A DNA stretch of 54,058 nt, taken from assembly GCA_042218235.1 (NCBI GenBank), contig JBDGRI010000023.1, forward strand, positions 1 through 54,058. Direction: 5' to 3'. Position 1 is the stretch's first letter, and each line of letters starts with the position of its first letter. The notes under the pieces are model-generated. The model worked only from the letters and a program-made list of their open reading frames with translations. It was not told the DNA's origin and ran no database searches. Position numbers and translations under genes: made by a program. This stretch comes from Candidatus Pacearchaeota archaeon. Its GTDB lineage: Archaea > Nanobdellota > Nanobdellia > Pacearchaeales > GW2011-AR1. Below, piece after piece: positions 4,457 through 47,216 of the stretch.

Positions 4457-4593
4457 TTATCCCTTAAGTTTTTTATACTATGATTTTTTCTGAATAACTT
4501 TTTAAAACCGATTTTACTATTTTGAGTTGTCGTTCTTGTAGGGTCGGCGGTCGGAAAAAGCCGATCTTAGGAAAAAACGGCGTTTTTTCATAG

Positions 4594-4688
4594 GCGGGGA
4601 TGTCGGCAAAAAATCGGAAGATTTTTAGCTATTGCGTATTTTTTCGCCATACTCAAAAATCCACAATAGAGTGTAAACACTCCATTAA
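4594..4688 (+). repeat. stable-RNA-associated mini-element, copy A (13-nt tRNA-Leu 5' copy + conserved element + spacer)
   Basis: GCGGGGATGTCGG (4594..4606) matches 12 of 13 nt of tRNA-Leu positions 1-13. It is followed by CAAAAAATCGGAAGATTTTTAGCTATTGCGTATTTTTTCGCCATACTCAAAAATCCACAATAGAG (4607..4671). Near-identical blocks occur at 43145.. and 8613... Confidence 0.7.
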
Positions 4689-4772
4689 GCGGGGATGCCG
4701 GAGTGGTCAAACGGGCAAGACTTAAGATCTTGTGGCTTAGTGCCTTCGGGGGTTCGAATCCTCCTCCCCGCA
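4689..4772 (+). tRNA. tRNA-Leu (anticodon UAA)
   Basis: 84-nt cloverleaf folded by eye. Acceptor stem is GCGGGGA/UCCCCGC and the anticodon stem is CAAGA/UCUUG with loop CUUAAGA. It has a long variable arm (GGCUUAGUGCC), T-arm GGGGG-UUCGAAU-CCUCC and discriminator A. Confidence 0.9.
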
Positions 4773-5017
4773 TTGATTCGAAACTTTGGGTTTATGGAAT
4801 TTTGCAAATTCAGGCAAATGTTTCCATGCGCAACAGAGTGAGCACTTTCAAAACGGAAGTTTTGATTTATTTTGGATTTTGGAGCGAAGCGAGAAAATAC
4901 GAGATAGTTAGAGGCTTTAGGTCTCTTACCGAATACTCTCCCCGTATCGATAAATTATGCATTAGTGCCTTAATCAGATTTGTTAAGAAATGGGTTAAAG
5001 GCTCCTTTTATATCGTA

Positions 5018-6025
5018 TCATTCGTTTCTAAATAATTCAGAAATGGATTCTCCAGTGTGGTTCCTATAGATTGCTTCTCCAAATAAAGGAGATAAGTCGA
5101 CAACATCGACATTTGTGTTGTTTTGGTAATGAGTGTTACTTGTTATAACAGCATCAAACTTATTGTATAGGTCTTCTGTTCCCTTTGTAAAAATTCCATG
5201 TGTCCCGTAACAAAAGACTTTGTTAGCACCATTTTCTTTTAATACATCGGCTGCCTTGGATTGTGTTCCTCCGGAGTCAATTATGTCATCAACAACGAGG
5301 ACATTTTTGTTATTCACATCTCCAATTAGGTCCATTTCCCCCACTTTTCCGGCTTCGTACCTATTTTTGTCCATAATAGCAAAAGAGTAATTATGAGATT
5401 CGGAGTCTTTTTTGTTTGCATTTTTTAATTTTTCCAAAAAAGTTTTCGCCCTATCTGCACCCCCTGCATCAGGAGAGACTACAACTAGATTCTCTAAACC
5501 TTTATAGTAATTATCTCTTAGATAATCGACCACGTAAGGGAAACTTTGTAGGCTATCGATTGGAATTTTTGCAGGGTATGATCCTTGTATTTGTTCAGCA
5601 TGCATATCAACTGTAAGAAGTCGGTCCATGTATGGAATTATGGAGTTTGCAAGTACTCTAGAAGAGATTGGTACGCGAGGCTTGTCTTTCCTATCTTTTC
5701 TTCCATAAAGAAGGTTCGGTAAAACAAAGTTTGAATTGTTGGTCGAGGAATTGTTCAAAAGATCTCCCATGAGCATTAATTCAATCCACCAATCTTGAGG
5801 ATTCTTGTTTGAGTCCTGTACAAAATAGACATTCCTCTGTCTTAGATTCTCAGGAACGTGCATATCTATTTCTCCGCTCCTGAACTTGTTTATTTGGACT
5901 TCGTTAAGTGGCATATCGAAATCCTTTTCTTTCTTCAGATAGTTTTGAATTTCTCTAGCAAAATTCCACCCATCAGAGTGCTTGTCTGCCAACAACATAA
6001 CTTCCCTGTCTAAACCCTTTTCCAT
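5018..6025 (-). CDS. prs: ribose-phosphate pyrophosphokinase (PRPP synthetase)
   Basis: 335 aa with VVSPDAGGADRAK and the PRPP-binding loop VLVVDDIIDSGGT. Confidence 0.8.
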   Translation of the reverse strand: MEKGLDREVMLLADKHSDGWNFAREIQNYLKKEKDFDMPLNEVQINKFRSGEIDMHVPENLRQRNVYFVQDSNKNPQDWWIELMLMGDLLNNSSTNNSNFVLPNLLYGRKDRKDKPRVPISSRVLANSIIPYMDRLLTVDMHAEQIQGSYPAKIPIDSLQSFPYVVDYLRDNYYKGLENLVVVSPDAGGADRAKTFLEKLKNANKKDSESHNYSFAIMDKNRYEAGKVGEMDLIGDVNNKNVLVVDDIIDSGGTQSKAADVLKENGANKVFCYGTHGIFTKGTEDLYNKFDAVITSNTHYQNNTNVDVVDLSPLFGEAIYRNHTGESISELFRNE

Positions 6026-7190: not shown

Positions 7191-7546
7191 TTTAATAGTT
7201 CCTCGAGTTCATTTATATATTTTTCAACTTTGTCTTTGTGGTATAGTTTGTAGGGAGTTTCTCCTGCAGCATCCGGATAGCGAGTTGTTATGAATTCAGG
7301 AGTTAAGTCGCTTAGAATTTGAAAGTATTTTTTTGGAACTTTAGTTTCCTTTGCAAGATAAATTAGAGAGTGTGTTTGTCCAGGAGATTCCGCTCTTTTT
7401 TCTATGTATAGTGCCTTTAATGCTTTTTCTGCGGATTGTTGGCATAAAAAAGCCGATACGTAATATTCTTTTATCTTGATATTCTTTTTCGCAGCTTCAA
7501 TATCCTTTTTAGATTGCTCAAGAAATATTTTTGATTCTTCCCTCAT
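7160..7546 (-). CDS. HEPN domain protein (toxin-like partner of MNT)
   Basis: 128-aa helical protein with a C-terminal TTRYPD motif typical of HEPN. It forms an operon with the MNT gene. Confidence 0.65.
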   Translation of the reverse strand: MREESKIFLEQSKKDIEAAKKNIKIKEYYVSAFLCQQSAEKALKALYIEKRAESPGQTHSLIYLAKETKVPKKYFQILSDLTPEFITTRYPDAAGETPYKLYHKDKVEKYINELEELLKWIENQVKKQ

Positions 7547-7658: not shown

Positions 7659-8234
7659 ATGGTTAGCTTAGACGATTTCACACAGGATTTGAAGGAGTTT
7701 GGTAATAAGGCATGGGAAGGTACAAAGAAGAATTTTGTCTTTCCTGCTTTGTTTGCTACTAGTTTGATTGGATTTTCTGGGTGTCAGAATCAAGACCTCC
7801 AGTACAATGAAAATGCTGAGAGGGTGGCCGAAGACTTTAAGGATTTTTTAGAAAGTAAAGAGGGTGGCTATAGGTTTAATGAAGATAATAAAGACGGAGT
7901 TTCATTATCCGTAGATGCTAGCCTTCGAGAGGGGGATATTGTTTTTAAATCAAAGATTTCTCTGCATGGAAAATACGATATTTATCTTTCCTATATTGAT
8001 GTTCAAGGTAATGGCTTTAACGGAAGCGGTTCTTCATGGTACAATTTAAGTAGTAATTCCGATACTTATCGTTTCGAAAGTCCTTCTGTAAAAATGCTTG
8101 GTAAGAGAAGCCATATGGATACAGATTCTTATAAAAATGTGCAAGAGGATTACGTTACTCTTATGAAAGTAACCATGTCTAATGCTGACTATAGTTCTTA
8201 TAATACTGGACTTGATGATCTAAGTCTTGATTAG
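7659..8234 (+). CDS. hypothetical lipoprotein
   Basis: The track ORF starts at TTG 7638, but ATG 7659 fits the promoter spacing. It has a signal peptide with a lipobox (LIGFSGC). Confidence 0.55.
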   Translation: MVSLDDFTQDLKEFGNKAWEGTKKNFVFPALFATSLIGFSGCQNQDLQYNENAERVAEDFKDFLESKEGGYRFNEDNKDGVSLSVDASLREGDIVFKSKISLHGKYDIYLSYIDVQGNGFNGSGSSWYNLSSNSDTYRFESPSVKMLGKRSHMDTDSYKNVQEDYVTLMKVTMSNADYSSYNTGLDDLSLD

Positions 8235-8269
8235 CAAAAAGTCTTTTAAGCGGTATTTGTTCTCTTATG

Positions 8270-8533
8270 CTGTAGGCCAGACCGGCGTGCTAGCCCTACG
8301 CTGTCCGCAAATGGGCTATATGGCGGGTCGCAAAGGGAGGCGTGATAAGTCTGCTAGGAAACCCCTTTCCTCTTGTCGACGTCCTGTCTGCCTTGATGCC
8401 ACTTATGTGAACCGGGTCAGACCTTGATCGGAGCAGCCCTAAGCATATGTTGGCATGTTTGGCAGGTCGCAGGAAAGAGAGAGGTTTGGGACCACTTCCT
8501 GGCAGACTTTGAGCAACTCCCCTGGCCTGCTTT
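8270..8533 (+). ncRNA. ffs: signal recognition particle RNA (archaeal 7S/SRP RNA)
   Basis: GC-rich island in AT-rich DNA. A terminal helix pairs GUAGGCCAG (8272..8280) with CUGGCCUGC (8522..8530). A helix-5 segment pairs AAGUCUGCUAGG with CCUGGCAGACUU. Alu-domain loops are complementary (UAGCCC/GGGCUA). A helix-8-like motif reads GGGUCAGACC...GGAGCAGCCC. A TATA-like CTTTTAAG lies about 24 nt upstream. End coordinates are approximate. Confidence 0.75.
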
Positions 8534-8612
8534 GATTTTCCGCTTCTGTATTTGGAAAAGCGAAGTAGTAGGCTGAAATTTTAATTTCTGGCTCTACGCT
8601 TTGGAGTTGCTG

Positions 8613-8744
8613 ACAAAAAATCGAAGATTTTTAGCTAATGCGCATTTTTTCATTTCATTCAGAAAATCACATAGGCCTGGAAATATCATGAGTATTTCAG
8701 CCCATTTCGCCTTTTTTCGTTAAACTCAAAAAGTCAAAATGGAG
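8613..8744 (+). repeat. stable-RNA-associated mini-element, copy C (downstream of SRP RNA)
   Basis: ACAAAAAATCGAAGATTTTTAGCTAATGCGCATTTTTTC... is shared with copies A and B. It contains two tandem half-units, ending ...AAAATCACATAG and ...AAAAGTCAAAATGGAG. Confidence 0.65.
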
Positions 8745-8835
8745 CAACTCCCCTGGCCTACTTCGTGGGAGGTTGCTACAATGTGACGCACCTTCTGAAT
8801 TAGGATTTCTCATAGAGCAACTCCCCTGGGCCTAC
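8742..8835 (+). repeat. two extra copies of the SRP RNA 3' end
   Basis: GAGCAACTCCCCTGGCCT occurs at 8511..8530 (in the gene) and 8742..8761, with a one-base-insertion variant (CTGGGCCT) at 8815..8835. The first and third copies also share the following CTTTGATTTT. Confidence 0.7.
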
Positions 8836-8881
8836 TTTGATTTTTGGTTAGAATTTTAAAGCATGTTTAGTTTTTCTTAAC

Positions 8882-21170: not shown

Positions 21171-22142
21171 CTAATCCCCATGACTATAACTAATTTTTTC
21201 CAAAGCGGGTTTAGTTGGATCGTGTTTATTGTAGAATTGCTTTCGCTCTTCTATCTTTGTAACGTATGGGTCATCAGGATCTCCATTCGCACTACTGCCT
21301 TGGTTGTATCTTTCAATTGCCTCGTCCCAGGTTCCATGCCTTCTCTTTAGAGTCGAGAGGAATTTTCCAGCAGCTTTAATGCTTTCTTCTGGGTCGAACC
21401 TTTCATCCATTTCAGATAATTTTTTGTAGTCGTGGTTGTATTCCTCTACAAGATTTGACAGTCTCTTTCCATGAGCCGAGTCTTTTCCAGTACTATACGA
21501 ATCTCCTCTTACATCTAAGTCATATGCCCTACCAGTTCCAGGTTGGAATTGACCGAGGCCTACGCCCCCATCGGGACTTACAGCCGTTACTCTTCCACCT
21601 GACTCTTGCATAATTATCGCTTTAAGTGTTCCCGTAGGAATATTGTACTTATTCTCTACCTTATCAAGTTGATCGTCCCACCTATAAGTCCTTTGGAATT
21701 TGCCCAGTTGGGTCCAAGCCGGCATTGTTACCTTTATTTCTTTATTCTCATTGGGTCTTAATAATTCATCAACAATAAAGTTTTCTTGGTAAGGAGTGAC
21801 TTGTTCTATATTGTTCTTATCTTTACTAAATTCTGAATTTTCTGCAGTTGAACTTGTGCCGATATATTGAGGAGCAAACGCACCCCAAAGAGGAATTAAT
21901 ATCTGCAAAGCGGTCTTCGTGGGAATCATAAATTTTTTTAGAGGGTCCAATCCTGGAATTTTCCAAGATTTATTGCTAGAGGATTCATTTTGAATTTTTC
22001 TTTTGGAACCTAGATAAACTTGATTTTTTAGATTCGTGTGTTTCAACATACGCCTAGCTATTTTAGAACCGTAAAGGAAATCCTGGAGCATATTTTTAGA
22101 AGATTCTCCTTCACCTCTTAATTTCCCGACGAGATTTTTCAT
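21171..22142 (-). CDS. SLT-domain lytic transglycosylase-like protein
   Basis: 323 aa with one TM segment. Motifs are IMQESGG (catalytic Glu-Ser), GLGQFQPGT and RYNQG. Confidence 0.7.
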   Translation of the reverse strand: MKNLVGKLRGEGESSKNMLQDFLYGSKIARRMLKHTNLKNQVYLGSKRKIQNESSSNKSWKIPGLDPLKKFMIPTKTALQILIPLWGAFAPQYIGTSSTAENSEFSKDKNNIEQVTPYQENFIVDELLRPNENKEIKVTMPAWTQLGKFQRTYRWDDQLDKVENKYNIPTGTLKAIIMQESGGRVTAVSPDGGVGLGQFQPGTGRAYDLDVRGDSYSTGKDSAHGKRLSNLVEEYNHDYKKLSEMDERFDPEESIKAAGKFLSTLKRRHGTWDEAIERYNQGSSANGDPDDPYVTKIEERKQFYNKHDPTKPALEKISYSHGD

Positions 22143-22213
22143 AGTCGCTTGCAGAGGTTACTCCCATTTATAAAAGTTTTTATATTTCTCGAGGGAAAAA
22201 GTTCGTATAAGAA

Positions 22214-22723
22214 CTATCTTCTTATTATTTCGTGAGAATCAAGATATCTGGGTTGTGTTTGTTCAGGTTCTATTTGTTCCGAAATTGTTATTGAAGCATG
22301 CATTTTGTCTTTTTCGGGCTTGCCCCAGTATTCAGAGATTCTAATGGCCTGGGGGTCGCCCGCCATTAATTCAGCGTTTTCGTCTGTTAAGTTCTTGGAT
22401 TGATAGCTTATTCTTTTTCCGTCGGCATTGTAGTCTTGAGATTTGATTATGTTAGTTCGGCTTCCATCAAAGTAATAGAAAGGTGCCTCTTCTGAATCTT
22501 TAGGATTTCCAAAATTTTCTTTCAACATGTTTTCAAGTTGGTTTAATCCTTCATCTTCAAGGTTCTTTATTACCCATTCATATTTTATTTGAGATATGTC
22601 CGCTGGTTCTTTTTTTAGAAAGGCTTCATGGTTTTTCCCGTTTAGATTGAATCCTATTAAAGGATTATAGTTGTCTCCTTCACCTTCTTCAAATCCTGGT
22701 AGGTGGTTGTATTCGTTGTTCAT
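22214..22723 (-). CDS. hypothetical protein
   Basis: 169 aa. Its start overlaps the upstream SLT gene by 4 nt. Confidence 0.5.
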   Translation of the reverse strand: MNNEYNHLPGFEEGEGDNYNPLIGFNLNGKNHEAFLKKEPADISQIKYEWVIKNLEDEGLNQLENMLKENFGNPKDSEEAPFYYFDGSRTNIIKSQDYNADGKRISYQSKNLTDENAELMAGDPQAIRISEYWGKPEKDKMHASITISEQIEPEQTQPRYLDSHEIIRR

Positions 22724-23682
22724 TTTATGTTTTCTTTATAGTATTCTCTGAATTTTTGGAATCTTCTCACATGAGATGTTTCTGAAGGTTTTTCTGCAGG
22801 AGAACCCAAATTATAGGCTGAAACTGCTTCCTTCAGTCCCCCGTATCTGTCAATAAGGGTTTCCATATATTTTGCAGCCGCATCGGAGCTTTTTACAACA
22901 TGGAATCTTTCATCAACTTTTGCAAGGTCTTTGTATTGATATCCATGTTCTTCGCATATCTTTCTCAGTGATTTTGCATGGTTAGTATCTGCCCCCATAG
23001 CATTAGATTCTCCTCTAACGTCTAGACCATATGCTCTTGCTGTTCCTGGCTGAAATTGATATAGTCCAGCACCCCCATCTCCGGGAGTGTTTAACTGTAC
23101 AGGATTTCCATGAGATTCTGTCATGGCTAAAGGTCCTAGAGTATGTCTCGGTATGTCGTACTCTCTCTCAAATTTCTGGTAAATATCTTTAAATCTTCTT
23201 GCTCTCTGAAATTTCCCTTCCATTGAAAGTCTAGAGGAGTTTATTCCTTCGAAGGTCTTTTCTTTTCCTTTTTCTTTGTCAGGATTTGGCCTTTCCTTTT
23301 TTTCAGAAATTTTTTCAGAAGGATTGAAATCATTATAGATATTTGAAACTTCATTTGAGAGTCCTGATGCTCCAGTTATAATTGTTGCTCCCAAAAGTGC
23401 TGTTGATATAGCATTTGTGGCTGCGGGCCTCCATTTTTCTGAAGCTTTATTTCTTAGCCCATTGATTTTTTCTGAAGCCTTTGAGACCAGGCCTTTTTGG
23501 TTTGCCGCGTATATTCCAATTGAGCTGGCACCGAAGGTTAATAGCTGTAAGGGTTCTGAGAAATCTTGAGAGGCTACATATTCAGATGATCCGAATGCTC
23601 CATTAACCGCTCCTATATTTATTGCAAATTTTGCCGCTCCTTCTGTTACTTTGTCTAAAAGACTCTTTCCTGCTTTTGCCAT
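22720..23682 (-). CDS. SLT-domain lytic transglycosylase-like protein (paralog)
   Basis: 320 aa with AMTESHGN, GLYQFQPGTARAYGLDVRG and AYNLG motifs. Confidence 0.7.
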   Translation of the reverse strand: MAKAGKSLLDKVTEGAAKFAINIGAVNGAFGSSEYVASQDFSEPLQLLTFGASSIGIYAANQKGLVSKASEKINGLRNKASEKWRPAATNAISTALLGATIITGASGLSNEVSNIYNDFNPSEKISEKKERPNPDKEKGKEKTFEGINSSRLSMEGKFQRARRFKDIYQKFEREYDIPRHTLGPLAMTESHGNPVQLNTPGDGGAGLYQFQPGTARAYGLDVRGESNAMGADTNHAKSLRKICEEHGYQYKDLAKVDERFHVVKSSDAAAKYMETLIDRYGGLKEAVSAYNLGSPAEKPSETSHVRRFQKFREYYKENIK

Positions 23683-27731: not shown

Positions 27732-28041
27732 AAGAGTTCAAAGAGGGGAGAAAGTTATCGAGGTTAGGCTTTATGACGAGCAAAGGCAGAAAGTTGAAAT
27801 TGGGGACGAAATTGAAATTCTTAATTATCATAATCGGGAAGAGAGTGTTTTGGTTGAGGTTATCGGCCTTTCGAGGTTTAGGAATTTTTATGATTTGTAT
27901 TCTGCTTTTGACCCGAGTAAGTTTGGGCATACCGAGGGAACTAAGCCTGAAGAACAAGCAGAAAATGACAGGCAGCATTATTCAAGAGAAGATGAAGAAA
28001 AGTATGGAGTTTTAGGAATTCATATTAGGTTGAAGGGTTAG
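27694..28041 (+). CDS. ASCH domain protein
   Basis: 115 aa with PF..V..GEKVIEVRLYDEQRQKVEIGDEIEI, typical of ASCH. Confidence 0.6.
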   Translation: MKHQMKLVKDPFRRVQRGEKVIEVRLYDEQRQKVEIGDEIEILNYHNREESVLVEVIGLSRFRNFYDLYSAFDPSKFGHTEGTKPEEQAENDRQHYSREDEEKYGVLGIHIRLKG

Positions 28042-28849
28042 TTATTAGGATTTCTTTAAGGATTTCTTTTGGATCCTTTTTGATAATCTCATCCCATGTT
28101 AAATCTACTTTCTTCAAATATTCTTTTATTAGATGATATCCAATTGAATACCCTGTCCATAAAGGATATTTCCCAGTTCCATAGAAAACTTTCCCATGTT
28201 CTTCGAAATCTTCACTGTCTAATATTTCCTTTAGTTCTTCAAAATATTTTTGTGCACTTTCTTTGTTTATTGCATTCCCTAAATGACTTTTTTCTCCAGT
28301 AATATGTTCTACGAAGTTTTCTGCGATTCCATCAAAAATAATTTGTTCTCCTATCGACATTTCGTTTATGTTATAGAAAGGGGATAGGGCATGAGTCGCT
28401 TCATGTATTAAAGATTTTTTCATTGATTCTTCCCAGTTTTCTGAAGGGAACATGTGTAAAATTATGGTTTTTTTGAAAGTGCAAAATCCTGAAATGCCAT
28501 CAAGTTTGTCTTTTACAAATTTGGAAGTAGTCGGGAATATAAATATATTTAGGCTTTCCATCGGTATAGAATCTTTTATCTTTCTCAAAGTTTTTCTTAC
28601 AGAATCCGATATTTTTGTTTCCATATTGCCTTCATTTGGAAACTGTTTTTCCGCATCGTTGTTAACAAAATTTAGATGAAATTCCAATGCTTCTTTTTCT
28701 TTCCAACCTGCAAACCCGGAATCTGTATTTGGGCAGTCCTTAGATGCTTCTTTAGCAAATTTCTTGCTTGGTAGACGGTTAGATTTGTCCAAGAATAGAT
28801 AGAGTTCTGCTAAGGTATTTTCGTCATTCTTGATTATTTCTTTTTTCAT
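28025..28849 (-). CDS. HExxH zinc-metalloprotease-like protein (DUF2268-like), last gene of the YcaO operon
   Basis: 274 aa with HEATH and a WTGYSIGYHL tail. Its start overlaps the SagB-like gene by 4 nt. Confidence 0.55.
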   Translation of the reverse strand: MKKEIIKNDENTLAELYLFLDKSNRLPSKKFAKEASKDCPNTDSGFAGWKEKEALEFHLNFVNNDAEKQFPNEGNMETKISDSVRKTLRKIKDSIPMESLNIFIFPTTSKFVKDKLDGISGFCTFKKTIILHMFPSENWEESMKKSLIHEATHALSPFYNINEMSIGEQIIFDGIAENFVEHITGEKSHLGNAINKESAQKYFEELKEILDSEDFEEHGKVFYGTGKYPLWTGYSIGYHLIKEYLKKVDLTWDEIIKKDPKEILKEILITNPST

Positions 28850-29556
28850 TGTTTTTTTCCTAAACCAATTACATATAAAGGAATTTCGTTTTCAGTCAAG
28901 TCAAGTATTTCTGAGACTTTGTCGTTTACATATCCTCCAATTGGGCAGGTCCCTATGTTTTCTCTCTCAGAAGAAAGGATTATATTTTGGCCCATATGTC
29001 CGGCTTCAATTAAAGAAAAGGGATACGCTTTTGCACCATATTTGACTTCTGATCGAGGTATTGCGGATGTTAAAACAATGGCTGCTGCGGGGTTTTCTAA
29101 AGCAGAGATTATTGATTCTTTTTCCTTATCTAGATTCTCTTCTAATAGTGTTTCAAGAGTGTTGTCTAATATATTGTAATGGTATGCTCCTTTTTCGATA
29201 CCTTCAACATTGAAATTGGTCACATATGTCTCTATGGGAAATCTTGCTCCTGCAGAAGGATACGACCTTCTCTCGGGATCTCTATTGTAATCGTTTATCC
29301 TACAAGAATGCAGTATATTTGAAAGCTGTTGGTAACTCATAGGGTCTTTTGAGAACGATCTTATCGATTCTCTTTGGGAAGTTAGTTCTTCAAATTTGTC
29401 CAAATAATTACGAGGCTTTAATTTCCGGGAGGGTAACCTAGGATATGTCTTATGAAATACTTTTACGTATTCTATGGGTGCTTCTTCATTACTGTCGATC
29501 TCCAACTTTTCTTTAAGCTTTGTTTTTTTATAGAAGTTTTTCGTATCTTTTCTCAT
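28846..29556 (-). CDS. SagB-type (nitroreductase-fold) dehydrogenase
   Basis: 236 aa with RESIRSF, RSYPSAGARFPIETYV, AYHYN, IEAGHMGQN and PIGGY. This pattern is typical of azoline oxidases. Confidence 0.7.
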   Translation of the reverse strand: MRKDTKNFYKKTKLKEKLEIDSNEEAPIEYVKVFHKTYPRLPSRKLKPRNYLDKFEELTSQRESIRSFSKDPMSYQQLSNILHSCRINDYNRDPERRSYPSAGARFPIETYVTNFNVEGIEKGAYHYNILDNTLETLLEENLDKEKESIISALENPAAAIVLTSAIPRSEVKYGAKAYPFSLIEAGHMGQNIILSSERENIGTCPIGGYVNDKVSEILDLTENEIPLYVIGLGKKQ

Positions 29557-29557
29557 T

Positions 29558-30802
29558 TTAAGTCATAGGGTGAGGTTTTAGGTTTTTTTCTTTTATTTCT
29601 CCGTAGTGTTTGCTATACAGATATTTTGCATTTTCGTCTAAATATAATGGATGTAGTTCGGGTATGATTACTTTTTTTACCTCTATCCCTTCCTTTTCCA
29701 TTTCAGGGAGAGAAATGTCTGCTTCGAAAACATGGAACCCTCTCTTGTCTAAACTATTTACAATTTCATCTATTCCAATCGGTTTTTTATTTAATTTTTT
29801 ATAGTTTATTTTTTTGGTTGATCCTAGCCAAAAAGGCAAATCGTTTTTTCTTTCGTTGCCGAACCAATAAAAGAACCTATTATCTAAAGAGTTTATTTCA
29901 TTTTCTTTTGGCAGCCTTTCCGGACATTCTATCTCTTTGAGTATTCTGCCTGTTCTTCTGCATTGTATAGATTCCATGATTGATCTTTCTATCGCGTCTT
30001 TATAGTTGAGATCGGCATCTGAGCCTACATTTATTGCTTGCCCCATATTTGATTTGTCGACTGTTACGGTTAATGCTGTAGGAATCTCCAAATCAGAGGT
30101 TGCATCAAACACGTAAGGTTCAAGCTGATATCTTTCCAAGTATTCTTTTGTTTTTTCTATATTTTTAGGAAGGTTCTCTATTAAAGGCAACTCTTTTGCT
30201 TGTAGGTACGCCCCTATGCATGAATCTCTTTCAATAGATTCAAGTAGTCCTTCTTTTCTTGCCCTTCCAGTTCCTTTGAAACCTAATGCTGTACCCGTAG
30301 TTATTCTTTCAAGTCTTATTGGAAATTCTTTGTTAAATTCAGGATTAATATAAATCAATTGTGCCGGCAGGTTTACTTCTTCTCCAGTAGACAAATTCTT
30401 TGCTGGATACCACCGATAAATTTCGTTATCGGCTTTATTTTCAAACTCCTCAATATTTATTTGTTCACTTGAATAGTTCCTGAATAAAGAAGGCCTAACA
30501 TCTTTTCCCGGGTTAAACTTACGCGGTTTGCTAAGGTACTCTTTTTGAGGATTTTCTATGGCCAATCTTTCAAGATATTCTCCATAGGCTTTAACCTTTG
30601 CGCTTTGAGAGTTCTTAGAAATACCTTGTCCATGGACTTCATTTGTTCTGTACTTTTCTTTATCGTTTTCTCCAGAAAAAACTAGGTATTGAGGATATTT
30701 TGGTTCGTCGGTAATTATTATTGTTTCCTCAGGATTAGTCCCTAATCCGGTTTTTTCAAACTTTCTTAAAGCTTCATTTAATCTCATAGGGCACCCTATC
30801 AC
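29558..30802 (-). CDS. YcaO-domain cyclodehydratase
   Basis: 414 aa with GQGISKNSQSAKVKAYGEYLERL, TTGTALGF, ESIERDS, and D.TSDLEIPT. The likely true start is ATG 30787, preceded by the SD GGAGGTGA. Confidence 0.75.
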   Translation of the reverse strand: MIGCPMRLNEALRKFEKTGLGTNPEETIIITDEPKYPQYLVFSGENDKEKYRTNEVHGQGISKNSQSAKVKAYGEYLERLAIENPQKEYLSKPRKFNPGKDVRPSLFRNYSSEQINIEEFENKADNEIYRWYPAKNLSTGEEVNLPAQLIYINPEFNKEFPIRLERITTGTALGFKGTGRARKEGLLESIERDSCIGAYLQAKELPLIENLPKNIEKTKEYLERYQLEPYVFDATSDLEIPTALTVTVDKSNMGQAINVGSDADLNYKDAIERSIMESIQCRRTGRILKEIECPERLPKENEINSLDNRFFYWFGNERKNDLPFWLGSTKKINYKKLNKKPIGIDEIVNSLDKRGFHVFEADISLPEMEKEGIEVKKVIIPELHPLYLDENAKYLYSKHYGEIKEKNLKPHPMT

Positions 30803-31089
30803 CTCCAGGGTTCTTCAGTTAAATCAGAAATCTCTTTTCTACGTCTTCTATTTGGATTTGAGTTAGATGCACTATGGCCACTATTTCCTATAGGTTGGTA
30901 GATCCCTGGTCTTGATCCGCTTTTGCTTTGAGACCCGCTATTACTTTGGCTTTGGGAACTTGATTGACAAGGTCCAGAAGAACCTACTAAAGGGTTATAT
31001 AGGTTAGAACGATTAGTGAGATTATACGGCGCGTTTTCAACTACGCCCTCCATTTCAAGGACTTTTTCCCTATATTTTTCCGCCTCCAT
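30799..31089 (-). CDS. Ser/Gly/Gln-rich small protein, candidate RiPP precursor
   Basis: 96 aa with the central tract GSSGPCQSSSQSQSNSGSQSKSGS. Its stop overlaps the YcaO ORF, and it is the first gene after the TATA box. Confidence 0.5.
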   Translation of the reverse strand: MEAEKYREKVLEMEGVVENAPYNLTNRSNLYNPLVGSSGPCQSSSQSQSNSGSQSKSGSRPGIYQPIGNSGHSASNSNPNRRRRKEISDLTEEPWR

Positions 31090-42971: not shown

Positions 42972-43131
42972 TCTATGGAAACGCTGTTTCCCTAAGATCG
43001 TCTTTCCTCACATAAGATGACCGGGAATTGTTTAATTTACATGGGTACTGTGAAAGGGAATTTTAAATATTTGTTGATATACAGAAATTACATAACATTT
43101 TTAAGCAAAAGTTATTCCTTATCTTTATGGT

Positions 43132-43285
43132 GCCCAGATGGCAGGCAAAAAATCAAAAAGATTTTTAGCTATTGCGTATTTTTTCGCAAGGCTCAAAAAT
43201 CCACAATAGAGCTTGAAACAAGTTTCACTCGCATTGCGCTTTTCCAAAAAAGAAGTGGAAAATCACAATAGAGCGGTTACATTAT
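43132..43285 (+). repeat. stable-RNA-associated mini-element, copy B (13-nt tRNA-Ser 5' copy + element + spacer)
   Basis: GCCCAGATGGCAG (43132..43144) is identical to tRNA-Ser positions 1-13. It is followed by GCAAAAAATCAAAAAGATTTTTAGCTATTGCGTATTTTTTCGCAAGGCTCAAAAATCCACAATAGAG and a second half-unit ending AAAATCACAATAGAG (43273). Confidence 0.7.
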
Positions 43286-43367
43286 GCCCAGATGGCAGAG
43301 CGGTTAATGCAGCGGATTGCTAATCCGTGCCCTTCGGGGCTCGCAGGTTCGAATCCTGCTCTGGGCG
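43286..43367 (+). tRNA. tRNA-Ser (anticodon GCU)
   Basis: 82-nt cloverleaf. Acceptor stem is GCCCAGA/UCUGGGC and the anticodon stem is GCGGA/UCCGU with loop UUGCUAA. It has a long variable arm (GCCCUUCGGGGC) and T-arm GCAGG-UUCGAAU-CCUGC. Confidence 0.9.
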
Positions 43368-43540
43368 TTTCATGATAATTAATACCCTAATATTTAGCTT
43401 CTTTTTAACCAGCCTTTGATCTTATCTTCATACGCCGCAATTATAAATAGTATTCCAGCAATCGACATTGCTATCGATGATATTTTATTATCATATATCC
43501 CTGTTACCCCCAATATAAAGAATACCGATCCTATAGTCAG

Positions 43541-47141: not shown

Positions 47142-47216
47142 TAGCGGGAAGAGGATTTGAACCTCTGACCTCCGGGTTATGGGCCCGACGAGCACTCCAG
47201 ACTGCTCCATCCCGCT
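47142..47216 (-). tRNA. initiator tRNA-Met (anticodon CAU), archaeal type
   Basis: The reverse complement folds as a 75-nt cloverleaf. It has an A1:U72 pair, three consecutive G:C pairs closing the anticodon stem (GGG/CCC), loop CCCAUAA and T-arm AGAGG-UUCAAAU-CCUCU. A TATA-like TAATTAGAAAA lies about 27 nt upstream. Confidence 0.85.

Follow-up and report, generated by a model that had tools for sequence, protein, structure and literature searches.

The window analysed here is a complete contig of 54,058 nt (G+C ~35%) from a Candidatus Pacearchaeota archaeon. It carries four stable-RNA genes, those of tRNA-Leu(TAA), tRNA-Ser(GCT), tRNA-Met and the RNA of the signal recognition particle (SRP) (Table 1). 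We deal with the segment 43132-43285, immediately upstream of tRNA-Ser, in which a copy of the 5' end of the tRNA gene, hereafter the pseudo-5' piece, is found together with a short non-coding repeat, hereafter the module. We read this segment as lying outside the mature tRNA and as something other than an intron.

The tRNA-Ser locus

As the first-pass annotation of this DNA had stated, the first 13 nt of tRNA-Ser, GCCCAGATGGCAG, are found twice without any mismatch, at 43132-43144 and at 43286-43298. The repeat is really 14 nt long, the T at position -1 being common to both copies. No third site exists in the 54 kb, even with one mismatch allowed; the expectation from shuffling is 0.03, and two or more matches were never obtained in 100 shuffles. 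The same annotation had described the 141 nt between the 13-mers as opening with a sequence nearly identical to that found at tRNA-Leu (copy A), and indeed this insert shares exact blocks of 28 nt and 20 nt with positions 4620-4647 and 4652-4671 of the tRNA-Leu locus, the local alignment of copy A with the tRNA-Ser copy (copy B) reaching a score of 108 for a shuffle mean of 15. Two of its statements needed trimming. The presence of a gene-specific 13-nt repeat at both tRNAs is exact at tRNA-Ser, but the tRNA-Leu copy is only 12/13 identical. Likewise, the repeat begins only approximately at +1, as identity starts anywhere from -2 to +1 in our four 5' cases with an exact or nearly exact copy, relatives included (a range that excludes the degraded copy of locus L034, which was not scored).

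The tRNA-derived sequence resumes on the far side of the module. AGAGCGGTTA, which corresponds to tRNA-Ser nt 12-21, is the longest exact match between the insert and the tRNA (10 nt), and it was equalled in 3 of 3000 shuffles. The order of the locus is the old promoter, tRNA nt 1-13, ~125 nt made of two module units (B1 and B2), tRNA nt (12)14-21, the bases CATTAT and then the intact tRNA-Ser. Because nt 12-21 are found beyond the insertion, the pseudo-5' piece would be ~21 nt long and interrupted: judged from the sequence, the duplicated segment of tRNA-Ser is ~21 nt and is cut at nt 13/14 by an insertion of ~125 nt. The module would then sit inside an older partial copy of the gene, and the apparent 13-nt repeat that flanks it would simply result from its insertion between nt 13 and 14 of the pseudo piece.

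Promoter boxes and predicted transcription

We fetched syntenic loci of distant relatives through homologues of the arginyl-tRNA synthetase (ArgRS) encoded in the window, for a total of 269 kb (loci are designated L034, L035 and so on). Where the stable-RNA genes are uninterrupted, in the window as in L034, L035, L038 and L040, a TTTTTAAG-like box lies in the region -35 to -20 and ends 21-26 nt before +1; that of the SRP RNA gene, AAAAAGTCTTTTAAGC at 8236-8251, ends 22 nt before the 5' end of the RNA. Such a short distance implies near-leaderless primary transcripts, with predicted leaders of 0-5 nt, for the uninterrupted tRNA and SRP RNA genes. It is also reminiscent of the leaderless tRNA transcription of Nanoarchaeum.

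In the interrupted genes, no box is found 21-26 nt before the true start. The box is instead located before the pseudo-start, at 26 nt for tRNA-Ser and 27 nt for the tRNA-Leu of L037 (both boxes perfect) and at 22 nt for the tRNA-Leu of the window (a degenerate box). Since the box stands at the proper distance from the pseudo-start and not from the true one, the pseudo piece marks the original start of the gene.

The module brings a box of its own. The second half of its A/T palindrome (see below), together with the purines that precede it, forms AAAAAGATTTTTAGC, whose sequence is very close to that of the SRP RNA promoter and to the boxes that precede the tRNA genes of the relatives. The predicted transcription start would be at ~43191, and the earlier suggestion of a transcript beginning about 25 nt after AAAGATTTTTA agrees with this predicted geometry.

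Structure and distribution of the module

A full unit of the module (4607-4671 in copy A and 43146-43211 in B1) is composed of an A/T palindrome followed by an imperfect hairpin, hp2. The palindrome is built of an A-run and a T-run, GCAAAAAATC-loop-GATTTTTAGC, and in hp2 an outer stem CTATTG/CAATAG leads, through a conserved internal loop with a single G-C pair, to an inner A/T stem capped by a loop of 9-11 nt. The tRNA-Ser insert was also said to contain an internal duplication of a half-unit. The sequence running from ATTGCG to AAAATCACAATAGAG is present at 43233-43273, but it is not a recent duplication: B2 is a divergent hairpin unit with compensatory substitutions, whose inner stem differs from that of hp2 and yet is complementary (CTTTTCCA/TGGAAAAT). 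It folds as DNA at -7.1 kcal/mol with the same layout of stem, 3x3 loop and stem, and B1 and B2 are divergent hairpin units lying 62 nt from each other. When the hp2 hairpins of five units were compared, 93.8% of the cells were paired, vs 35-55% when the partner strand was slid, and 6 of the 13 pairs were changed on both sides, a value never reached in 500 shuffles. With five related sequences this is no proof, but it is suggestive of an hp2 kept through compensatory changes.

A match to the Rfam CRISPR-DR60 model (21 bits, for a gathering score of 45) was rejected, as two divergent units without regular identical repeats do not make a CRISPR array. RNA folds of the whole region were uninformative, merely pairing the upstream 7-mer with the 3' strand of the acceptor stem, and the scanner for promoters and terminators, built for sigma-70, does not apply to archaeal DNA. 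We also noticed an 84-codon open reading frame (ORF) starting with ATG (43017-43271, plus strand) that takes in the old promoter, the pseudo-5' piece and the two hairpin units. This ORF is almost surely not a gene, and a gene caller could annotate it in error.

The module forms a family of at least six units in the contig, all of them flanking three of its four stable-RNA genes (tRNA-Leu, tRNA-Ser and SRP RNA). The nhmmer E-values were 1e-17 to 1e-21 for A, B1 and C1, 1e-5 for C2 and 2e-4 for D, B2 having been found by pattern instead. One genome therefore holds several near-identical non-coding copies of the module, as is seen for miniature inverted-repeat transposable elements (MITEs). Unit D is located downstream of its tRNA gene and is inverted, and therefore neither a single orientation nor an upstream placement is a rule for the units. 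What looked like a further copy of the module upstream of copy A, older and degenerate, did not reach significance.

The SRP RNA gene has its last 22-30 nt (GAGCAACTCCCCTGGCCT..) in triplicate within 335 nt (8511-8845), the copies being those at 8511-8532, 8742-8763 and 8815-8836. Units C1 and C2 stand between the first and the second copy and are bounded by a perfect 9-nt inverted repeat, GGAGTTGCT/AGCAACTCC. Apparent pseudo-5' fragments of the SRP RNA beside C1 were not significant. The Rfam SRP model uses copy 1 (CCTGC), and the real 3' end could be any of the three; copies 2 and 3 (CCTAC) would pair better with the 5' end of the SRP RNA (GTAGG) than copy 1 does.

Outside the contig, we found nothing similar to the module in the 269 kb of the relatives' loci. 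Exact-pattern scans of GTDB genomes, JGI metagenomes and IMG/VR returned chance matches only, in unrelated bacteria or viruses, without the hairpin and not beside a tRNA. blastn against phage and plasmid collections gave no match, no Rfam family was found even at E <= 1, and our literature searches brought no description of the module or of pervasive terminal micro-duplications of tRNAs in DPANN archaea. Within the window, a Pfam scan of ~50 ORFs detected no integrase or transposase domain, the ORFs scanned included no Cas1, and neither TnpA nor TnpB was found.

Terminal self-copies in relatives

The best database relatives of the window ArgRS, metagenome-assembled genomes named Nanoarchaeota, Woesearchaeota or Pacearchaeota, are just 55-59% identical to it, and the host is thus a deep-branching DPANN archaeon without close sequenced relatives. 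Comparable duplications are found in the syntenic loci. On the 5' side, nt 1-22 of the tRNA-Thr of L035 are copied 55 nt upstream (2148-2202), and the orthologous tRNA-Thr of L034 has the same copy in a somewhat decayed state (7272-7337). The pseudo-5' piece and hairpin of these two loci are ~94% identical, and the acceptor stem of the L034 tRNA has changed. In L037, nt 1-21 of tRNA-Leu are copied 112 nt upstream (7832-7943, minus strand). On the 3' side, the last 20 nt of the L038 tRNA-Thr occur again after a 66-nt insert (8466-8551), and L039, which comes from Logan and is identical to L038 from NCBI, is an independent assembly with the same duplication. Furthermore, the last 18-22 nt of the L040 tRNA-Leu occur again after an 86-nt insert (5480-5583, minus strand), and the tRNA-Leu genes of L034 and L035 each have ~12 nt of their 3' end repeated ~47 nt downstream. 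Besides its upstream self-copy, the tRNA-Leu(TAA) of L037 (7679-7831, minus strand) is interrupted by 69 nt at the canonical position in the anticodon loop, an insertion that the tRNA-Leu of the window does not have.

Taken together, the self-copies of the relatives are 12-24 nt long with inserts of 33-91 nt, which show no relationship to each other or to the module. A self-copy within 300 nt is present for 6 of the 12 distinct tRNAs reported by ARAGORN, for a chance level of ~0.003 per tRNA (a calculated value, as the control loci held two tRNAs). The boundaries are alike from case to case: the 5' copies go from the start of the gene to the D-loop, and the 3' copies from the T-loop to the end of the gene. 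The tRNA-Leu genes of L034, L035, L038 and L041 have no 5' copy and may be taken as equivalents of the empty site; no orthologous tRNA-Ser locus was recovered, and the loci of homologues of the MBL-fold neighbour contained no tRNA.

Discussion

The arrangement at 43132-43285 is real and non-random, and it appears to combine two known kinds of structure, the scar of an integration in a tRNA gene and a promoter-bearing miniature repeat. We propose that it is a composite scar, in which an older att-type terminal micro-duplication was later hit by a promoter-bearing, MITE-like miniature repeat, and we would put the chances of this scenario at about even. In a first step, the first ~21 nt of tRNA-Ser would have been duplicated, leaving the pseudo-5' piece behind the old promoter and the intact gene a few bases downstream. 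In a second step, which we infer to be the later one although the structure itself is there to be read, the ~125-nt non-coding repeat made of B1 and B2 would have entered the pseudo piece between nt 13 and 14. As a consequence, the T5 and T6 runs of B1 would stop the archaeal RNA polymerase coming from the old promoter, which would yield just a short abortive RNA of ~35-40 nt ending in the T5 run of 43162-43166, and tRNA-Ser would be transcribed from the module box near 43191 with a leader of ~95 nt needing 5' processing. The module would thus probably be what now drives tRNA-Ser.

What could have produced the first duplication? Integration of the att type is most likely the origin of the self-copies, because they run from the gene terminus to the D- or T-loop, as expected of att identity blocks. 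In site-specific integration, the incoming DNA is expected to rebuild the gene up to its end, and the identity to stop there. The terminal part of the tRNA gene is indeed present as a direct repeat of one partial and one complete copy. The sublocation logic of integration within tRNA genes was reportedly set out by Williams in 2002. Partial tRNA genes commonly arise through integration (PMC9897764), and elements that integrate in the 5'-distal part are documented, if rare, archaeal att sites measuring 8-69 bp (PMC6563490). As in the attL/attR duplications left by elements with tyrosine recombinases, a terminal piece of a stable RNA is repeated here from the gene end to the D- or T-loop, the repeats (12-30 nt) fall in the archaeal range, one copy is complete and the other partial, a site is re-used (the SRP RNA gene, with its three copies) and the displaced piece retains the original promoter. 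Unlike them, the repeats are separated by 6-230 nt, devoid of integrase and cargo, rather than by 9-23 kb. In addition, the phenomenon touches about half of the tRNA genes sampled in the clade, and the pseudo piece is itself interrupted at tRNA-Ser.

The second component, the module, behaves as a mobile or recombining family of the MITE or repetitive extragenic palindrome (REP) type, for which the description of a miniature repeat with a predicted outward promoter fits best. It resembles Correia elements, REP/REPIN sequences, MITEs and the 'putative mobile promoters' (PMC3575422) in being short (63-127 nt), non-coding and multi-copy, in being built on imperfect palindromes, and in carrying a putative promoter that may take over the adjacent gene. 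It differs from these repeats in that it has no terminal inverted repeats and no target-site duplication (TSD) of constant length, bears a putative promoter of the archaeal type, with a transcription factor B recognition element (BRE) and a TATA box, is seen only beside stable-RNA genes, and has no known cognate transposase. The palindrome-associated elements (PATEs) derived from IS200/IS605 have sub-terminal imperfect hairpins and no inverted terminal repeats. The module shares these two traits and, if the pseudo piece is indeed split, would have inserted without duplication as well. Its left flanks are also similar (..TGTCGG^, ..TGGCAG(G)^ and ..TTGCTGA^), three junctions being too few to define a target motif. 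It differs from PATEs in that its two hairpins are dissimilar and that neither TnpA nor TnpB was found.

Several observations weigh against the composite scar. Only 141 nt separate the repeats at tRNA-Ser, with no integrase or cargo between them, and so little intervening DNA without a recombinase is a poor fit to att-type integration. Moreover, all the terminal self-copies lie within ~230 nt of their gene, and none was found at kb distance within +-10 kb; this lack of kb-scale copies is odd for decayed integrated elements and leaves some room for a dedicated short-insertion mechanism. On the side of the module, we found neither terminal inverted repeats nor a constant target-site duplication, its ends GCAAAAAATC.. 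and ..CACAATAG(AG) are not inverted repeats of each other, and its hairpins have little stability when folded as DNA (-2 to -7 kcal/mol, with z-scores of -0.3 to -2.3). No related autonomous element was found in the one 54-kb contig available for this genome, which has no close relative (best ArgRS identity 59%). At tRNA-Leu, neither an extension of the pseudo piece past the module of copy A (849 of 3000 shuffles) nor a similarity of the tail of this copy to the D-loop of the tRNA was significant, so that the tRNA-Ser locus provides the single case of a split pseudo piece. Finally, promoter use, termination and leader processing are predictions.

Among the alternatives, the one that survives best, though we regard it as unlikely, is that the module is itself a small transposable or integrating element making a stagger of 13-14 nt at +1, the 13-mer being its own TSD produced independently at tRNA-Leu and at tRNA-Ser. 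One candidate would be a casposase or Cas1-like enzyme, or some other integrase of the ruler type that works where promoter and gene meet. The same module is bounded by a gene-specific 13-mer at two tRNAs, both duplications stop at nt 13, the promoter supplied by the module would make the insertion viable, and the ~21-nt repeats at the gene ends of relatives could reflect a ruler mechanism. The first-pass annotation had likewise named a staggered cut as a possible origin. We prefer another origin for the 13-mer: tRNA nt 12-21 reappear past the element, which a 13-nt TSD does not predict, and the 21-24-nt copies of the relatives exist without the module. A single fixed cut also accounts poorly for repeats that are 13-14 nt beside the module at the tRNAs vs 22-30 nt at the SRP RNA gene, where the module has no flanking repeat of 13-14 nt and stands between the arms of a 9-nt inverted repeat. 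Nor do terminal inverted repeats, or a Cas1 or transposase gene in the window, come to its support. What can be kept of the annotation's claim is its broader part, that the repeat is not due to chance and stems from a mechanistic process of insertion or integration, in line with the shuffle tests and with the same type of duplication in independent assemblies of relatives.

Somewhat less probable still, in our opinion, is an undescribed short-insertion process acting at the stable-RNA genes of a Nanoarchaeota clade of DPANN archaea, which would duplicate ~13-24 nt from the start or end of the RNA with 6-200 nt in between. The promoter-carrying hairpin module of 63-127 nt would exploit this process, or the D-arm/A-box sequence of the tRNA, and would represent a new class of miniature mobile elements that donate promoters and are confined to tRNA and SRP RNA genes. 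The old promoter, once displaced with its 13-mer, might also yield a genome-encoded small RNA resembling a tRNA 5' fragment.

A function at the RNA level, in which the upstream copy of the 5' end and the hairpins would be a selected leader or small RNA, seems rather improbable to us. It could be a leader competing for the 3' strand of the acceptor during maturation, or an RNA resembling a 5' tRNA fragment and ending at the T5 run. The old promoter is indeed intact before the pseudo-start, the 13-mer (14-mer) is exact, hp2 looks maintained by compensatory changes, and the orthologous pseudo-5' piece and hairpin persist in L034 and L035 in spite of the change in the acceptor stem of L034. However, these two are close relatives whose intergenic DNA is similarly conserved, so that this persistence does not go beyond the neutral expectation. 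From one lineage to another the inserts are unrelated in both sequence and length, decay has set in at the tRNA-Leu copy (a mismatch, and an old promoter that is degenerate), the units are found in both orientations and also downstream of genes, the folding z-scores are modest and no Rfam family matches.

A comparably small share of belief goes to a tandem duplication of the tRNA gene followed by internal deletion of most of the upstream copy, the module being in that case a conserved local promoter and leader. Pseudo-5' pieces upstream, pseudo-3' pieces downstream and short spacers are what it predicts and what is seen. Nevertheless, independent deletions would not be expected to end time and again at nt 21-22 or in the T-loop, the presence of one module at three unrelated genes and the split pseudo piece are left unexplained, and no complete tandem tRNA pair was found in the 269 kb of the relatives' loci.

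We consider very improbable an intron at position 13/14, consisting of the 141 nt and the downstream 13-mer, with the upstream 13-mer as the true leaderless 5' exon, which would suit an organism devoid of RNase P. The pseudo-start does lie at the distance from the TATA box where uninterrupted genes start, and relatives of Nanoarchaeum have been described as lacking RNase P (PMC10100707). No RNase P RNA gene was found in the 54-kb window, the rest of the genome not being covered by the search, or in ~215 kb of the relatives' loci, a sampling far too small to conclude on absence. But no bulge-helix-bulge (BHB) motif (3-nt bulge, 4-bp helix, 3-nt bulge) exists in any register of the repeats of A, B, L035, L037 or the 3' cases, an intact contiguous tRNA gene is present, and the T5 and T6 runs of the module would end transcription from the upstream promoter. 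Split tRNA genes in Nanoarchaeum equitans are said to have been described by Randau et al., and the stand-alone 5' tRNA piece behind its own promoter recalls them; unlike in split genes, the tRNA downstream is intact and the 5' piece has neither a complementary joining sequence nor a BHB motif. The likeness to the leaderless tRNA transcription of N. equitans (PMC10100707) extends to the DPANN host, to the fixed short distance of the box and to the predicted start of uninterrupted tRNA transcripts at +1 or a few bases away. In contrast with the leaderless tRNAs of that organism, the module implies a long leader, so that 5' processing would be required.

An assembly artefact, through chimeric or collapsed reads at the tRNA, is hardly credible. 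All of the window comes from one metagenomic contig, but three of its loci share this architecture, each with repeats specific to its gene, and sequences assembled independently from other samples have analogous duplications, of which one was recovered twice (L038, L039).

If the composite scar is the right explanation, the promoters of essential stable-RNA genes can be moved out of place and supplanted by a tiny repeated module in the streamlined genomes of DPANN archaea, and about half of the sampled tRNA genes of this clade have short terminal self-copies. It would affect tRNA annotation, as pseudo-fragments and long leaders could pass for introns or split genes, and it would bear on the question of which tRNAs need 5' processing where uninterrupted tRNA genes look near-leaderless. 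It would also offer a tractable case of promoter mobility in archaea. Current concepts stay unchanged unless a dedicated insertion mechanism is demonstrated, and the significance would rise if the pervasive ~21-nt micro-duplications of the DPANN clade stem from one.

Other features of the contig

Table 1. Stable-RNA genes, pseudo pieces, promoter boxes and module units of the window.
Feature	Position	Strand	Basis or remark
Degenerate old promoter box of tRNA-Leu	4563-4571	+	ends 22 nt before pseudo +1
Copy A, upstream of tRNA-Leu(TAA)	4594-4688	+	nhmmer E 9.5e-21
Pseudo-5' 13-mer of copy A, 12/13 identical	4594-4606	+	sequence comparison
Single module unit of copy A	4607-4688	+	alignment, nhmmer
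tRNA-Leu(TAA)	4689-4772	+	stable-RNA gene of the contig
Unit D, inverted degenerate hairpin	4870-4910	-	between tRNA-Leu and the phosphoribosyl pyrophosphate (PRPP) synthetase gene; nhmmer E 1.9e-4
SRP RNA gene	8270/8273-8532	+	stable-RNA gene of the contig
SRP RNA 3' flank with module units	8533-8845	+	C0, C1 and C2 among three SRP 3'-end copies
C0, inverted B2-like hairpin	8533-8562	inverted	overlaps the SRP terminator
Unit C1, with promoter box	8614-8675	+	just downstream of the SRP RNA gene
Unit C2, promoter-less	8685-8744	+	just downstream of the SRP RNA gene
Old tRNA-Ser promoter box AACATTTTTAAGC	43094-43106	+	TTTTTAAG ends 26 nt before pseudo +1
Pseudo-5' piece, left part, tRNA-Ser nt 1-13 (14 nt with T at -1)	43132-43144	+	exact match
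Unit B1	43145-43232	+	palindrome, hp2 and tail; nhmmer E 4e-19
BRE/TATA-like AAAAAGATTTTTAGC in B1	43155-43169	+	analogy to the SRP RNA promoter
hp2 of B1, CTATTGCG..CACAATAG	43169-43209	+	imperfect hairpin
Unit B2, promoter-less hairpin ATTGCGCTTTTCCA..TGGAAAATCACAATAG	43233-43271	+	hp2 architecture, other inner stem
Pseudo-5' piece, right part AGAGCGGTTA, tRNA-Ser nt 12-21	43270-43279	+	exact match
Six-base spacer CATTAT between pseudo piece and true gene	43280-43285	+	cf. CATTAA before tRNA-Leu
tRNA-Ser(GCT), intact	43286-43368	+	ARAGORN 43285-43368; Rfam tRNA 43286-43367, 61.5 bits
tRNA-Met	47142-47216	-	third tRNA gene of the contig

The protein genes of the window are those of an ordinary chromosome, including ArgRS, isoleucyl-tRNA synthetase, SMC, RNase HII, a photolyase, an archaeal-type D-aminoacyl-tRNA deacylase, TrmB regulators and PRPP synthetase. 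Two tandem paralogues of ~320 aa with SLT lytic transglycosylase domains (21171-23682, minus strand) are candidates for an attack on a bacterial or host cell wall. Genes for a YcaO cyclodehydratase, a nitroreductase-family protein and a DUF2268 Zn-protease-like protein stand side by side at 28025-30802 (minus strand), with a small ORF at 30799-31089 directly upstream; this group may be a cluster for a thiazole/oxazole-modified peptide (TOMM-like), which would be unusual for a reduced DPANN genome.

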